Shown in pieces: positions 29,185 to 38,578 of a DNA stretch of 64,000 nucleotides. Position numbers and translations under genes: made by a program. Origin of the DNA: Escherichia phage T4_ev151; the sequence record LR597660; one strand, 5' to 3'. A model generated the notes under the pieces. That model ran no database searches and was not told where the DNA came from. It worked only from the letters and a program-made list of their open reading frames with translations. The first letter of the stretch is position 1. Each line of letters starts with the position of its first letter.

Positions 29185-29658
29185 TTATTTGAATGATTTG
29201 ACGTACTGAATAGAGCCTTTGCTATTCACAAAGGCAATTTTACCATTTTTATTATACATGGTAGCAGTACGCTGATAACCATAAGTTTGTTTACCAGATT
29301 GATAACCAACTAATGCAAAATTATCTTCGCCCATTTTATTCTGTTTAGCGCGGATGCGTTCATGGCCATGTGCCATAAGAACCTTAGCATCACCAGTTGC
29401 AATGGATCGACGAGTTTTTTCATCTTCAACTGTATTAACAAAGTCGTCAAATGAATCAAATTTAGCATGAGATTTATTATACAGTTTTCCATCTACTGCA
29501 TAATTATATCCCTGTACATCCATCTCAACTTCTGTACCATCATCCAATACAGCAGTGATTTTTTGACCTTTTTTAAATTTCAAAAGATCAGTAAAAGATT
29601 CAGCAATAATTTGAGAATTAATAGCTGCTTCAGTAATAAATTCTTGATATGTTTTCAT
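29185..29658 (-). CDS. Internal protein family member (capsid-targeting sequence MKTYQEFITE)
   Basis: 157 aa; N-terminus MKTYQEFITEAA with LxE gp21-protease site; AAAGGAAA SD. Confidence 0.65.
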   Translation of the reverse strand: MKTYQEFITEAAINSQIIAESFTDLLKFKKGQKITAVLDDGTEVEMDVQGYNYAVDGKLYNKSHAKFDSFDDFVNTVEDEKTRRSIATGDAKVLMAHGHERIRAKQNKMGEDNFALVGYQSGKQTYGYQRTATMYNKNGKIAFVNSKGSIQYVKSFK

Positions 29659-29667
29659 ATGTTTCCT

Positions 29668-30084
29668 TTAAATGTAAATATTTTTGCCGTAATACTTGTA
29701 CCAGTGTGGCTTCATTAAAATTTTTTCATCAAGTCGTTGTTGACTCAATTTAATAGCTGATTTGCATGGATTATAATCATTTTTCCATTCTGCTGGAATA
29801 TCGCTGATGTCAGGAACTTCAGTATCTTTTATACTGAACCCGCGTTTTAAGCATTCCGTTATAATGTCTGATTGACGCTTTCGCAAAAATTCTAACTTAT
29901 CGTAAAAGAAAGTAACATGACCAGAACCTAAAATAAACTCGGAAGATATTTTAAAATCTTTAACCCGCTTACCATTTGCAACATGTTTACGAACTATACC
30001 AAAAACACGCGGCAATTCACGGTATTCTGCGATTAAATGTTGATCAGCAAGTTCAGATACTAAAGTCAAATTAATACGAGTCAT
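29668..30084 (-). CDS. denV: Endonuclease V (pyrimidine dimer glycosylase)
   Basis: 138 aa, [17 protein letters not shown]...; diverged from recalled T4 DenV; GGAGGG SD. Confidence 0.9.
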
Positions 30085-30109
30085 TTTATCCCTCCAAGTA
30101 ACTGTGAAT

Positions 30110-30139
30110 ATACTATCACAATTCTAGGAGAAAGTAAAC
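30110..30139 (-). promoter_or_regulatory. T4-type early promoter upstream of denV
   Basis: Minus strand GTTTAC, 18 nt, TGTGATAGTATA. Confidence 0.5.
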
Positions 30140-30143
30140 AACT

Positions 30144-30674
<531 letters not shown>

Positions 30675-31115
30675 TTAAAAGAGGTTGTTCATTATTCGGT
30701 AAAGTGAAGGACCCATCACATATTGCCACTGAGTACGAGGAATAAGAGCAAAAGCATCCATCTCTGGAATCATAACGCCATCTTTATTTTCAAAATAAGA
30801 CTCACAATAGCAATTTCTGAACATCTCATGCTCTACTGGAATCGTATAATAAAATAACTGTAAGTCTTTATTACTAGAATATTTAAATACACCTAGGTCT
30901 TCTAGAAGGTCTGGATTATAATTGCTAAAACCAGTCTCTTCTAAGCATTCTCTTCGTGCTGCATCTAGTGCGCTTAAATCAGAATTTTCTACACGGCCCT
31001 TTGGAATATCCCAGCGATGTGCCATCATTCCAGGCTTACGAGAACCAGTAACACGACCCATAAATAAATCTTTATCTTCTGTCATAAAGATAATACCAGC
31101 TGATAGTGTTTTCAT
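30675..31115 (-). CDS. nudE: Nudix hydrolase NudE
   Basis: Nudix box GRVENSDLSALDAARRECLEETG; ATG 31115 with AGGAAA SD (track TTG 31130 gives 151 aa). Confidence 0.85.
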   Translation of the reverse strand: MKTLSAGIIFMTEDKDLFMGRVTGSRKPGMMAHRWDIPKGRVENSDLSALDAARRECLEETGFSNYNPDLLEDLGVFKYSSNKDLQLFYYTIPVEHEMFRNCYCESYFENKDGVMIPEMDAFALIPRTQWQYVMGPSLYRIMNNLF

Positions 31116-31474
31116 TTTAATTTCCTGCAATCACTCACAAACTCTTTCATTGACTCATTTTCAATATAAGACATGTAGCTATTATATTCCTTTAATTGTA
31201 TTTTGTAATCCTTTTTTCTTTGCCAATTTATTTTAAAATTATCATAATGAAAATATAAAATGATACCAAAGAATGAAAACAATGAAATAATTTTAGTATA
31301 ACAAAGCTCACTCCAAACTTCTGTTATATTTACTGTGCCGTCGATGTTTAAAATAAGACAGTCAATTAACAATCCAAAAAGACTACCCGCAAGAGCTGCA
31401 GCCAACGCCACAGCAAAAATTAAAAATGACTCAGGAAACGAATATTTGACTTTATTTAGTTTTGGCTTTTGCAT
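31112..31474 (-). CDS. Membrane protein
   Basis: 120 aa, two hydrophobic helices. Confidence 0.55.
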   Translation of the reverse strand: MQKPKLNKVKYSFPESFLIFAVALAAALAGSLFGLLIDCLILNIDGTVNITEVWSELCYTKIISLFSFFGIILYFHYDNFKINWQRKKDYKIQLKEYNSYMSYIENESMKEFVSDCRKLK

Positions 31475-31848
31475 CGTGATTCCTTAACAAATTTCATAAT
31501 TTCATTAAATTCATACGCAGCAAGTTTAAGCTGATGTTCCTTTTTAATCTTTTTACACTGAGCTTTCCATTCGCGTACGCGTTTACGATAGTGTCTTCCT
31601 TGATACCAGTATCCTACCCAATTTACAGGTACTAATAAAAATGGAACTACTAATGGAAGAATTAATACTAACAGAAATACTGCGTCTGATTCAATATCAG
31701 TAGTAACATCTATAACTATTCCAATAATCATTAGGATTATAAATGATACAGCTGTCACAGGACCTACTAATACATCAGTAGGAATTAGCTGGCGCTTTAA
31801 TTCATACTTCAACGGTTTACTTGGAAGGTATAGTGATGGTTTTGACAT
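31456..31848 (-). CDS. Membrane protein
   Basis: ATG 31848 (track TTG 31869); two TM helices, basic C-terminus. Confidence 0.5.
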   Translation of the reverse strand: MSKPSLYLPSKPLKYELKRQLIPTDVLVGPVTAVSFIILMIIGIVIDVTTDIESDAVFLLVLILPLVVPFLLVPVNWVGYWYQGRHYRKRVREWKAQCKKIKKEHQLKLAAYEFNEIMKFVKESRCKSQN

Positions 31849-32425
31849 ATTCTCTACATTCCTTAACAAATTTTTCTAGTAATAAATCGCTTTCAAAATT
31901 GGGATTTTCTACGAATTTATCAAAAAGATCATCAACAATAGTTAAGATATTCTTTTTACTAAGAATACGTTTATTTTCATGCTTCGTTTCAGAATCAACT
32001 ATAAGAGTAAAGAAATATTTCTTGCCCTGAAATTTTACCGTAGTATCAATATAAAATAAATTTGATTTTTGTAAATTACGTTTAAACCATGCATCACTTA
32101 AACTATAAACGCCAAGATAATCATAATCGTCGTTTAAATAACAGACCGTCCATTCAGGAGAAACAAAATCAGTAAATTCAACATCAAAATCGCATGTTAA
32201 TAAATGAATTGATTCAATACTGTTAATAAGTATTCCAGGACGTATTAAAGACTTTTTACCTCTAGAAAATCTTCCAGAAAGACTTTCATCAGTTTCATAT
32301 GAAGAACCCCAATAATAATTACGTCCTTCTGCCATACGTTTAAGAGCATTTAATAATTGGTCTGGAACATCAACTTGTCTTTGGAATTCTTCAAACATTG
32401 AATTGAAATCACTTTGCATTTTCAT
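31817..32425 (-). CDS. Hypothetical protein
   Basis: 202-aa ORF, ATG start. Confidence 0.55.
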   Translation of the reverse strand: MKMQSDFNSMFEEFQRQVDVPDQLLNALKRMAEGRNYYWGSSYETDESLSGRFSRGKKSLIRPGILINSIESIHLLTCDFDVEFTDFVSPEWTVCYLNDDYDYLGVYSLSDAWFKRNLQKSNLFYIDTTVKFQGKKYFFTLIVDSETKHENKRILSKKNILTIVDDLFDKFVENPNFESDLLLEKFVKECREYVKTITIPSK

Positions 32426-32446
32426 TCCTATTTACTCCAAGTAATA

Positions 32447-32460
32447 GGGGCCGAAGCCCC
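32447..32460 (-). terminator. UUCG-tetraloop hairpin (terminator-like)
   Basis: ggggc-cgaa-gcccc immediately after the stop at 32467; weak U tract. Confidence 0.4.
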
Positions 32461-32466
32461 TTATCA

Positions 32467-33060
32467 TTATTTCAGAGAATTAATGTATTCCTGAACATCG
32501 GCAGAGGTAGTTTCAACCCCAGAAATATTACCGTTAAAGGTTTCAACTCGAGCAAGGGTATCTTCAATATCAACCTTAGTCAGTGCTGCAATTTCAACTA
32601 CATCATCGGCAGTACTAATTCCAAGGGCATTTGCTGCACGAGTTTCACGGATATATTCCAATTTAACCGCAAGTTCTTGACGAGCATCATCTAACTCAAC
32701 TACTTTCTTGGCGATTTCAATTCGCATTTCAGCATAACCGTCAGCCTTAGTAGTCAACTGCTCAGCTGTTCGACGATATAGTAAACCGAGTTTAGCATGC
32801 ATTGTTACATCTTGGCCTTCGGAAAGAAGTTTACGAATTTCACGCTCTTTTGATTCGGCCTGTCGATTCTTTTCGATAACAAGTTCACGAATACGTTTTT
32901 CTTCGTTAATAGATTTAACAGAAGCAGTTTTTAGATCTTTAATTTTATCAAGTAGTTTTGCTGCTGCAGCAGTATACTGTTCTTCGACAGATAGATTTTT
33001 AGCCATAGCAGAACCAAGTTTAGTGCGAATAAACTCAACAATTTTCTTCAGTGTGTTCAT
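32467..33060 (-). CDS. Hypothetical alpha-helical coiled-coil protein
   Basis: 197 aa, AAGGAAA SD, heptad-rich. Confidence 0.55.
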
Positions 33061-33161
33061 AGTATTTCCTTAGGTTAATTGAGATTTAAAATCCGTAGGA
33101 GTATAATACTCTATCGTCAAATTATAGGCTCATAATATCTCAATCATGAGCCTGCGTAAAC

Positions 33162-33425
33162 TTATTTCATATTATTGAAATATTCTTCTGCGATTTCGTC
33201 GTTATCATGGTAAACTTTAGAAGACAGTTTAACATAACCTTCTGCTGTGAACATATTAATCACAACTTTTACAGTATACCACTGACCGTCTTCATTACCC
33301 ATTACTGCGTAAGTTTCAAACATCGGATGATCAGGACCGATAACTTTAATATCATTCACTGTACGACCGAAATCTTCTGAAACGCATTTCATAAAGAAGT
33401 TGAACAGTTCGCCGTAATTATCCAT
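33162..33425 (-). CDS. Hypothetical protein
   Basis: ATG 33425 with GGAG SD; track extension translates promoter/leader. Confidence 0.5.
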   Translation of the reverse strand: MDNYGELFNFFMKCVSEDFGRTVNDIKVIGPDHPMFETYAVMGNEDGQWYTVKVVINMFTAEGYVKLSSKVYHDNDEIAEEYFNNMK

Positions 33426-33468
33426 TTCATTCTCCAAGTTGTTTTCTGTATCAGTAGTTGATAGTTGT

Positions 33469-33499
33469 ATAGTACCATGGAAGAACAGAGATGTAAACA
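33469..33499 (-). promoter_or_regulatory. T4-type early promoter with conserved leader
   Basis: Minus strand GTTTACA, 19 nt, TGGTACTAT plus ACAACTATCAACTACTGATACAG. Confidence 0.55.
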
Positions 33500-33621
33500 G
33501 TTTTGTGAAAAAATTTTTAGGGAATTCTAGGGCAGGGATGGGCAATTAAAGGATAGGATAATATATTATAAAGGGTATAAACTAAATGATGCCTAGAGAG
33601 GTCCAGAAAGGCCTAGATACC

Positions 33622-33646
33622 AAAAAGCCCTATCATTTAGATAGGG
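33622..33646 (-). terminator. Rho-independent terminator
   Basis: Minus RNA CCCUAUC-UAAAU-GAUAGGG then CUUUUU, after the stop at 33655. Confidence 0.55.
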
Positions 33647-33654
33647 ATTTAAAA

Positions 33655-34218
33655 TTATTTACCTAGTTTAGTTATTATAGCTTCTGCAGCAGCTTTTAGC
33701 TTAGATGCAGTGTTAATACGATTTTTAATTTCAGTATACGCATCGCCAAGAACATCAAGGCTATCAGAATAAACACTTACACTATTGCGTTCGCTATTTG
33801 AAATAGAACCTTTAGTTTTACGATCAAAATCGGTGTACACGTCTTGAAGATCGCGGGCTGCCTTCTTTGCATCATCCAATGCATCAAGAGCTTTATTCAA
33901 AGCATTAACGTATTTTTTGGTGTCGAACATATTCTTAGAAATTTTAACAGGTGCACGTTCAGGAGTAGCTAATACAGATTTAGGAACCTGAGCGCCAGAT
34001 GCCAATTTCTTAGAAATTTTGAAAAATGCTTTATTGAATTTATTTTCTTGACTCATTGTAAAAGAACTATTATCGATGTTGTACATTTCAATAGCTTTAG
34101 CTTTCCACTTAAGAAAATCGCCGCGGTCTTTTGGGTCCAAGTGGAAGAATACTTTAGTAAGATCTGCTTCAGATGGTAATTTTGCTGCTTCGGTTAAAAA
34201 TTCTGCATAGGTTTTCAT
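33655..34218 (-). CDS. Internal protein family member (capsid-targeting sequence MKTYAEFLTE)
   Basis: 187 aa; N-terminus MKTYAEFLTEAA; AAGGA SD. Confidence 0.65.
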   Translation of the reverse strand: MKTYAEFLTEAAKLPSEADLTKVFFHLDPKDRGDFLKWKAKAIEMYNIDNSSFTMSQENKFNKAFFKISKKLASGAQVPKSVLATPERAPVKISKNMFDTKKYVNALNKALDALDDAKKAARDLQDVYTDFDRKTKGSISNSERNSVSVYSDSLDVLGDAYTEIKNRINTASKLKAAAEAIITKLGK

Positions 34219-34308
34219 TTAAAATCCTTGAAATAATCTATCGGTTGGTTATTAATTATTTATTACTTTGTTATTATCCGTAACAGCGTTATCCGAGTGA
34301 TTCAAACT

Positions 34309-34336
34309 AAAAAGCCCCAACCTTTCGGTCGGGGCT
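34309..34336 (-). terminator. Rho-independent terminator ending the tRNA/stable-RNA transcription unit
   Basis: Minus RNA AGCCCCGACC-GAAA-GGUUGGGGCU then U5. Confidence 0.65.
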
Positions 34337-34652
34337 AAGCCTTGCGGCAACCTTGTCGGGGTTCCACCTGCTAAGGCAAGTGTTTGTACGAAACGCCGGG
34401 ATTCGAACCCGGTTATCAAGCAGTTGACGCTACTCAATATTTTTAAAAGGCCATATCTCGACCATATCCGAACGTTCCGTCAAAAACGCTACTCGGCTTA
34501 CGGCAAAGATATTTCCTCGAATCGATAATTCGGTGCGCCGTTTCTGCTGTGATATAAGGGGGCATTAACAAAACATAAAGATTTATTAATGCCAGTCCTT
34601 AAACAGGGAACATCAGTCCGACGACTTGCCGGTAGCGACCCGGCTTCTTGTC
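34337..34652 (-). ncRNA. Stable small RNA region (T4 species 1/2 position), with a tRNA-like T-arm
   Basis: No ORF; between tRNA-Arg and terminator; GGTTCGAATCC T-arm at 34392-34410 without a full cloverleaf. Confidence 0.4.
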
Positions 34653-35937: not shown

Positions 35938-35943
35938 GCTATA

Positions 35944-36552
35944 TTATTTATTACGTGAAAAAGACTGTTCTATCAATTCTGGACACTTTCGTTCTATCCA
36001 TTTTCTAGCTTTTTGTGGGCTTATACCTATTATTTTAGCAGCTTTACTAACCCATCCAAATTTAGAATAATCGATTTTAACTAATTCTTCGTAAATTTCA
36101 TCAGTTAAAATCTTTTCATTAATATTTACCAGTAAATGATATAATTTATTATCATTAGCAATTTTAATGAATCTTTTATAGTTTCCGCCTTTACTTAAAC
36201 CTAATGAAGTAATTGCAGATGATATAGTAGCCGAATTTAATAGTGCGTTTAAAATTTCTTCATCACTAACATTATAACGCTTTCTATTATTTTTAATATT
36301 TTTACCAGCAAAAGTATCAGTTTGCGAATGGCAATTTGGGCATAATAATCTTAAATTTGATTTAAGATGATTTTTGTTATTTCCATCAATATGGTCTAAT
36401 TGTAGAACAATATGCTTATTTTGCCATTTTGAAATTTTACAAATTGCACACTCATATGGAAAAATATTTTCTTTTATTATTTTGTCTTTCAGCTTTCCTG
36501 TACTAAAATTTGGATGTTTTCCTTCAAAAATTTCAGCTAATTTAGTATCCAT
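35944..36552 (-). CDS. HNH homing endonuclease
   Basis: HNH motif LQLDHIDGNNKNHLKSNLRLLCPNCHSQTD; ATG 36552 (track TTG 36576); stop 6 nt from tRNA-Leu 5' end. Confidence 0.75.
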   Translation of the reverse strand: MDTKLAEIFEGKHPNFSTGKLKDKIIKENIFPYECAICKISKWQNKHIVLQLDHIDGNNKNHLKSNLRLLCPNCHSQTDTFAGKNIKNNRKRYNVSDEEILNALLNSATISSAITSLGLSKGGNYKRFIKIANDNKLYHLLVNINEKILTDEIYEELVKIDYSKFGWVSKAAKIIGISPQKARKWIERKCPELIEQSFSRNK

Positions 36553-36634
36553 AATATGATTCCCAATTATTAACAAAGGCTCTCAAACAAGAACCCTTGA
36601 TGATAGAGGGTATTAATCAGTGCGGTATGAGTTA

Positions 36635-37581: not shown

Positions 37582-37815
37582 TTATTTTTTACGAAAAATT
37601 GATTTATATTTATCAGCCCATTTCTCGATGACTTTTTCTGGTCCATAGATAACAAAATAATCACCAAACTCTTCACCACCGAGCTGACCGAAATTATCTA
37701 ATGCATCACGAAGAACTCCATGAGGCATTTCGCCCATTTTATCTTTCTTACCAATGTAAATAAACTCAACTTTTACATCAGCAGCTTCAGCAATAAATTC
37801 TTGATACGTTTTCAT
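37582..37815 (-). CDS. Internal protein family member at the ipI locus (capsid-targeting sequence MKTYQEFIAE)
   Basis: 77 aa from ATG 37815 (GGAG SD); N-terminus MKTYQEFIAEAA; adjacent to 57B as T4 ipI. Confidence 0.65.
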   Translation of the reverse strand: MKTYQEFIAEAADVKVEFIYIGKKDKMGEMPHGVLRDALDNFGQLGGEEFGDYFVIYGPEKVIEKWADKYKSIFRKK

Positions 37816-37851
37816 TTTATTCTCCAATTTCACATTTGTTTTGATAGGGTA

Positions 37852-37881
37852 ATAGTATCACTACTAAAACCCCGTGTAAAC
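37852..37881 (-). promoter_or_regulatory. T4-type early promoter
   Basis: Minus strand GTTTACA, 18 nt, GTGATACTATT. Confidence 0.5.
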
Positions 37882-37893
37882 AACTTTGTGAAA

Positions 37894-38578
<685 letters not shown>

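Follow-up and report, generated by a model that had tools for sequence, protein, structure and literature searches.

The 187-aa open reading frame at 33655-34218 on the minus strand of the analysed DNA probably encodes an unnamed member of the internal proteins of T-even phages, and we put the probability of this interpretation at roughly three in four. The analysed stretch of 64,000 nucleotides, here called the window, is a segment of a Tequatrovirus (T4-like) genome with minus-strand genes (Escherichia phage T4_ev151, sequence record LR597660). The T4 internal proteins are directed into the capsid by an N-terminal sequence and are injected together with the DNA (PMC3012670; PMC9391042), and their genes have been described to occupy "two distinct loci" (PMC12373910). 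The slot between rnaC and e.8, in which the 187-aa gene resides, represents a third internal-protein locus that is bounded by transcription terminators.

The translation of the 187-aa ORF starts with MKTYAEFLTEAA, corresponding to the residues MKTYAEFLTE|AA, and a ribosome-binding site (AGGA, 34225-34228, minus strand) is located 6 nt before the ATG. Further upstream, 38 nt before the ATG, the late-promoter-like box AATAAATA (34257-34264, minus strand) agrees in 7 of 8 positions with the T4 box TATAAATA. A scan of the coding strand between the rnaC terminator and the ATG found no sigma-70 or early-type promoter. The imperfect late box makes the time and level of expression uncertain, which is a point against an injected internal protein. 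Comparison with the copies from RB14, HP3, CT01 and RB69 revealed dN/dS values of 0.02-0.09 with overwhelmingly synonymous changes, i.e. strong purifying selection, hence the ORF is a real gene. The copy in Shigella phage CT01 (L012, 1501-1989) has lost 75 nt between two AAAATTTCTAAGAA repeats, an in-frame deletion that removes only the linker of the protein and leaves the reading frame intact. The annotated protein RB14ncORF136c is 99% identical and bears the label "hypothetical protein". In RB69 (L007, 11429-11991), a 1-nt deletion divides the copy of the 187-aa gene into ORF149c and ORF148c; either this copy is a pseudogene, or the old sequence contains an error. RB69 is a member of another genus, yet its copy is separated from that in the window by a dS of about 0.17 and a dN of about 0.016, and this closeness hints at a recent exchange.

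The leader MKTYAEFLTE (34189-34218, minus strand) is identical in 7 of 10 positions to the T4 IPII/IPIII leader MKTYQEFIAE, including a conservative change from I to L among the differences. The six-frame translation of the window contains three occurrences of the motif MK[TS][YF]x[EQ]F[LI]xE, each of which opens an ORF on the minus strand, namely at 37582-37815 (77 aa), 33655-34218 (187 aa) and 29185-29658 (157 aa). It was found in none of 200 shuffles, and only 6.6e-5 matches are expected from the composition. Immediately behind the leader, L8-T9-E10|A11 is the sole L/I-x-E motif for the prohead protease in the whole 187-aa protein, from which cleavage after Glu10 is predicted. Glu10 is invariant across an alignment of 12 family members. 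Moreover, all nine distant relatives with 19-30% identity (P0013, P0016-P0023) kept the leader in the form M-x-x-F-x-(E/Q/D)-(F/I)-(L/I/T)-x-E, and most of them added a second I-T-E or I-N-E site. The retention of the leader among so diverged proteins argues for its function. Furthermore, the fusion of leader and body must be old, because these relatives possess their own leader variants and the Karamvirus relative has it in the same slot. The ribosome-binding site and leader DNA of the 187-aa gene are unlike the near-identical 5' ends of ipII, ipIII and Ip4, thus there is no evidence of a recent leader swap. According to the articles citing the work of Mullaney & Black 1996 (PMC9391042 and PMC3012670), such a leader has been employed to encapsidate foreign proteins. 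The original prediction had postulated an ORF with an internal-protein-like leader at this place, situated between the e.x ORFs and the stable-RNA terminator and outside of the T4 internal-protein loci. The gene itself is well founded by the ORF, the ribosome-binding site, the motif and the dN/dS values, its position is verified by e.8 on one side and the rnaC terminator on the other, and the T4-type capsid-targeting nature of the leader is corroborated by its similarity to IPII/IPIII and by the two further bearers in the window. The term "paralogs" that was used for the three bearers is a misnomer, since their common part comprises only about 12 residues.

The 187-aa gene is part of a 687-bp cassette (33622-34308, minus strand) that is absent from T4. 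Its junctions were defined by alignments of the interval from tRNA-Arg to e.8 in the window, T4, RB32, RB14, HP3 and RB69. On the upstream side, six tRNA genes, a segB-like GIY-YIG gene and tRNA-Arg precede the homologues of the stable RNAs rnaD and rnaC (34306-34648, minus strand), which are 93% identical to T4 at the nucleotide level over 344 aligned columns and matched no Rfam family. The intrinsic terminator of rnaC (34309-34336, minus strand; stem 34313-34336, T-run 34309-34313) forms the left boundary of the cassette, and its own intrinsic terminator CCCTATCTAAATGATAGGGCTTTTT (33622-33646, minus strand; stem 33628-33646, T-run 33622-33626) the right one. The downstream neighbour is the homologue of e.8 (33165-33425, minus strand), with 98.9% identity to T4 e.8 in tblastn. 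In T4, the interval between rnaC and e.8 comprises 285 bp without any gene, and GGGGCTTTTT runs straight into GGTATCTA; in the window, GGGGCTTTTT is followed by the insert, after which GGTATCTAGG resumes. The point of insertion coincides with the T-run of the rnaC terminator, and GGGCTTTTT forms the end of both junctions. It consists of an AT-rich leader region harbouring the late-promoter-like box, the ribosome-binding site, the coding sequence and the terminator.

The compared phages differ in the occupation of this slot. It is empty in T4, contains the 187-aa gene alone in the window, RB14 and FL23, and contains in RB32 solely the gene of another leader-bearing family, here named MKSY-157, which is placed between 34-bp repeats of the rnaC terminator that are also given in the RB32 record. 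HP3 possesses both cassettes in tandem with the terminator repeated between them. The arrangement in the window corresponds to the sequence expected if the MKSY-157 cassette had been deleted from an HP3-type arrangement by recombination between the terminator repeats. The modular shuffling that had been suggested for these genes is hence seen at the level of whole cassettes, as terminator-bounded inserts in a slot that is empty or filled with one gene, the other or both, but not, for the 187-aa gene, as a recent exchange of leaders.

Phages sharing the flanks are numerous. Megablast of the region 33400-34500 retrieved 706 phage records, almost all of them from T4-like phages of Escherichia, Shigella or Yersinia, and tblastn detected the 187-aa protein at 86% identity or higher in 164 phage records, none of which provides an informative product name. 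With 164 carriers among about 706 flank-sharing records, the gene represents a dispensable, polymorphic cassette. A search of 5.8 billion proteins returned only unnamed or "hypothetical" entries for the 187-aa protein. The exhaustive HMMER search with the mature body against 1.84 billion representatives found the family itself and one distant relative, P0013 (29% identity, E 3e-5 to the mature body). Starting from P0013, eight more proteins were collected including one from Enterobacter phage KMB17 (Karamvirus), and the BFVD added Yersinia phage fHe-Yen9-01 (Tegunavirus) to the family. In the alignment of 12 sequences, the N-terminal domain contains the invariant residues T21, K22, R32, D34, K37, Y46, I48, A64 and F65, the following Pro/Lys-rich linker is of variable length, and two subtypes can be distinguished in the C-terminal part.

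The gene order in KMB17 mirrors that of the window. The tRNAs are followed by a structured region, a terminator, a perfect TATAAATA, the gene, a second terminator, an early-type promoter and the orthologs of e.8 (38% identity) and e.6 (54% identity). The same slot in this Karamvirus implies that the gene has held its position since before the genera split. Hence, the third locus is at least as old as the separation of Tequatrovirus and Karamvirus, and T4 is one of many phages in which it is empty. On a 74-kb metagenomic contig (L010), the gene of the relative P0023 follows gene 1, 57A/B, tRNA.4-.2 and the tRNA-gap block, and small putative T4-family ORFs as well as a 197-aa ORF of the size of e.6 lie downstream of it. 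On another metagenomic contig (L004), which is T4-like but distant, the ORF directly downstream of the P0013 gene (2092-2526) matches the Pfam families ART-PolyVal (ADP-ribosyltransferase-like) and DUF3990; it may provide another injected or anti-host function beside the slot.

Regarding the fate of the 187-aa protein, its packaging and processing appear quite probable on the basis of the leader and the cleavage motif. The precursor would be made during head assembly, as is the case for T4 IPI-III, and the capsid-targeting sequence would bring it to the prohead's scaffolding core. There, the prohead protease gp21 would cut after Glu10 (LTE|A), converting the uncleaved N-terminus MKTYAEFLTEAAK into a mature form that starts with Ala11 and would be recognizable by the neo-N-terminal peptide AAKLPSEADLTK. 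The basic, lysine-rich mature protein of 177 residues would then stay with the packaged DNA and be injected with it at the next infection, and by analogy it could neutralise a first-response defence of the host on entry. Because they enter the cell together with the DNA, internal proteins can be active ahead of all phage gene expression. Ip1, Ip2 and Ip3 are inhibitors of GmrSD type IV restriction enzymes, each acting on a different one (PMC12373910), and the leader-bearing protein Bas37_0260 inhibits McrBC (HIDEN-SEQ preprint, bioRxiv 10.1101/2025.11.20.689424). All four internal proteins with known targets are thus disarming type IV restriction, in the form of three GmrSD variants and McrBC, and help to set the host range among wild E. 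coli. Judged from these examples, an anti-defence role would be the most likely one for the 187-aa protein as well, and a type IV restriction enzyme can be named as its tentative target, with the odds somewhat against it. It is rather doubtful, but conceivable, that the slot between the tRNAs and e.8 is the ancestral third locus of the Tevenvirinae from which both families supply injected effectors against systems other than the GmrSD enzymes counteracted by Ip1-3. If this were true, the targets could be for example a further type IV enzyme or a first-response defence that does not act by restriction, and the N-terminal domain might recognise a conserved partner of host or phage origin. The very low dN/dS and the N-terminal domain that is conserved across genera do not fit to an arms-race inhibitor evolving by point mutation. 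The literature search yielded no virion proteomics of any phage carrying the gene and neither processing data nor a phenotype of the 187-aa protein, and the accessible part of the supplements to the accessory-gene screen by Silas et al. contains no trace of it.

The strongest competitor of an injected defence inhibitor is a bulk DNA-associated core protein that is packaged via the leader, fills the core, neutralises the DNA charge and replaces the absent IPIII/IPII; we regard this as improbable. The predicted mature protein from Ala11 to Lys187 (33658-34188, minus strand) has 177 aa, a mass of 19.7 kDa, a pI of 9.5 and 14.7% Lys, almost equal to the size, pI and lysine content of T4 IPIII* (183 aa, pI 9.65, 13.7% Lys). 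Internal proteins in T4 heads touch the phosphates of the DNA through their lysines (PMC3012670), and tblastn with the T4 internal proteins detected only leaders in the window, hence no IPI, IPII or IPIII body exists in these 64 kb. Purifying selection and the cross-genus N-terminal domain would also be compatible with a conserved interaction partner, for instance DNA or the core. However, the gene is absent from T4 and many phages with the same flanks and is therefore dispensable for head structure. The basic composition does not separate the two roles, since IPII and IPIII are equally basic, yet act as specific GmrSD inhibitors, and the roles of a core protein and a defence inhibitor are not mutually exclusive.

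Still less credit can be given to the assumption that the 187-aa protein is an unpackaged accessory protein of the cytoplasm, whose N-terminus is a relic of ip recombination or serves another use, for example in translation initiation. This view could refer to the fact that packaging is deduced from ten residues, that the gene in the window stands behind a terminator with an imperfect late promoter, and that the database records consistently carry the "hypothetical" label. But a decaying relic would have drifted, and the leader with its invariant E10 is instead kept at 19-30% identity. Likewise, the perfect late promoter of the Karamvirus ortholog does not agree with this view, and L-N-E sites are part of the leader of MKSY-157, the one other gene that occupies the slot.

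Finally, a relocated ortholog of T4 IPIII (or IPII) is practically excluded, as its length is similar to that of IPIII, but the weak 27% BLASTP alignment to IPII over residues 1-99 does not withstand the comparison of leaderless bodies, and the protein belongs to the separate family phrog_2280, which is annotated as "unknown function". BLASTP alignments with T4 IPI, IPII and IPIII were confined to the first 12 residues apart from this longer IPII match, which had an E value of 0.002 in a tiny database, was driven by the leader and vanished without it. For the comparison of bodies, Smith-Waterman scores were calculated after removal of the leader with 400 shuffles each, using IPI, IPII, IPIII, Ip4, Ip5, Ip7, Ip9, three internal proteins of RB69, the 77-aa protein of the window and HP3 gp116. 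None of the scores left the range of the shuffles, with z values between -1.5 and 0.9 (IPIII, z = -0.9), and the distant but true relative P0013 reached z = 16. The original prediction of one leader on three unrelated bodies thus holds, with BLASTP similarity restricted to the leader and z below 1 against all known internal proteins, and the comparison with IPIII, which it had named as the check that could overturn it, gave no sign of a relocated IPIII.

The structural predictions pointed in no particular direction. AlphaFold2 with the family alignment produced a model with a mean pLDDT of 78, in which the leader is disordered. It comprises a small, conserved helical N-terminal domain (residues about 12-75), a disordered Pro/Lys-rich linker (76-98) and a helical bundle (100-186) with pLDDT values of 83-94. 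Pfam gave only sub-threshold helical noise (cytochrome b562, E 0.0055), PADLOC no result and the sequence search of the PDB with the family profile nothing below E 0.14. With Foldseek, no PDB structure scored better than E 0.48, and the structure search in the BFVD returned only family members. Neither profiles nor folds of anti-restriction proteins showed similarity to the 187-aa protein. The helical fold as modelled is therefore uninformative and gives no functional lead.

The second inhabitant of the slot, the MKSY-157 family (RB32ORF133c, HP3 gp116, fD1 g140), comprises proteins of 157 aa with the leader MKSY(A/T)QFLNE|AVLNE|A, in RB32 MKSYAQFLNE|AVLNE|A. Copies are located in HP3 (L002, 4945-5418) and RB32 (L005, 4619-5092), the window contains none. 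The gene, likewise unannotated, is present in 512 phage records, and its cassette in RB32 and HP3 carries a perfect TATAAATA immediately behind the rnaC terminator; relative to the gene, this box is placed like the perfect one of KMB17 and the 7/8 box of the window. MKSY-157 shares with the 187-aa family the slot, a leader (in MKSY-157 with L-N-E sites), the enclosure by terminators and the succession of a helical N-terminal part, a Pro/Lys linker and a helical C-terminal part, but it has an unrelated body and is more widespread (512 versus 164 records). Paralogy of both families was considered and rejected, because Smith-Waterman comparison resulted in z = 0.8 and hhalign aligned only 12 leader columns. 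The protein g140 of phage fD1, which carries MKSY-157 only, has been detected in purified virions by LC-MS/MS (PMC8309999, Table S3). This data set is of low specificity, as 49% of all fD1 gene products are recorded in it, among them DenV, lysozyme and NudE, so that the detection lends weak support to the packaging of proteins from the slot.

Several features of the 187-aa protein are familiar from characterized systems. Like T4 IPI-III, it is small, basic and lysine-rich and possesses a leader with an L/I-x-E site, and like their genes, its gene is non-essential, polymorphic for presence and absence and situated in a plastic region near the tRNA/e block. In contrast, the bodies of T4 IPI-III are unrelated, their genes are found at other loci, and T4-type early promoters precede ipI, ipII and ipIII but not the 187-aa gene. 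The Ip4-Ip12 proteins of T-even phages (of which Ip4, Ip5, Ip7 and Ip9 are annotated in RB32/RB14) likewise combine one leader with unrelated bodies in repeat-flanked cassettes; in the RB32 record, Ip7/Ip9 are surrounded by 43-bp repeats and ORF133c by a 34-bp repeat. They differ in their position at the ipI or e/denV loci, and the 187-aa family is unnamed and lacks an internal-protein annotation (RB14ncORF136c and RB69ORF148c/149c are "hypothetical"). Bas37_0260 is also a leader-bearing protein without homology to IPI-III and demonstrates that unnamed internal proteins can hit new targets. It is encoded at the ipI locus with an experimentally shown function, and here it is set beside the 187-aa protein by its description only. 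The notion of one leader with many bodies at plastic loci is not new, since it was already put forward by Repoila et al. 1994 according to the citation in PMC12373910 (reference 27 therein), and the annotations of RB32 and RB14 mirror it as well. The annotations and literature found do not reflect the leader on both slot families, the third locus and the conservation across Tevenvirinae genera; our literature search revealed no mention of RB14ncORF136c, RB69ORF148c/149c or RB32ORF133c. For applied research, the two slot families offer concrete candidates that can be screened at low cost for effects on host range and counter-defence in therapeutic Tequatrovirus phages, and the combination of leader plus slot can serve as annotation rule for such genes.

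The other two leader-bearing genes of the window are situated at established loci. Ip4 (29185-29658, minus strand; 157 aa, leader MKTYQEFITE) lies downstream of denV. It has the same sequence as the annotated Ip4 of RB32 (100% identity), with matches to Pfam DUF7412 and phrog_3155 ("internal virion protein"). In the region 29185-30638 (minus strand) the gene order is e, denV, Ip4 and a vs.8-like gene, compared to e, ipIII, ipII and denV in T4. The denV gene of the window has about 78% DNA identity to T4 denV with flanks of about 94%. In its ribosome-binding site and leader DNA, Ip4 does not differ from T4 ipII and ipIII, and denV reaches into this stretch with its 3' end; the arrangement suggests recombination at the shared 5' region. 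At the ipI locus, the 77-aa internal protein (37582-37815, minus strand; leader MKTYQEFIAE) matches phrog_8111 ("internal virion protein", E 1.8e-50). Its gene is preceded by a T4-type early promoter (GTTTACA ... TACTAT; 37816-37900, minus strand) inside a hairpin-forming repeat, and GGTGATATTATTACCCTATCA of that upstream region recurs just past the stop of the 77-aa gene, which is a direct repeat of the kind noted around RB32 Ip7/Ip9.

Further changes compared to T4 were observed in the neighbourhood. In the e.x block (31112-33545, minus strand) e.7 and e.2 are absent, and in the ORF list e.8 starts from a TTG at 33545, upstream of the T4-like ATG at 33425. At 35941-36576 (minus strand), tRNA-Gln is missing: some 618 bp stand in place of about 64 nt of the T4 gene, with flanks that are 99% identical to T4 on both sides. 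The replacement carries a 210-aa HNH-like ORF (35944-36576; Pfam HNH, E 0.005, below the curated cut-off), and the loss of tRNA-Gln looks like the insertion of a homing endonuclease that destroyed the tRNA gene.
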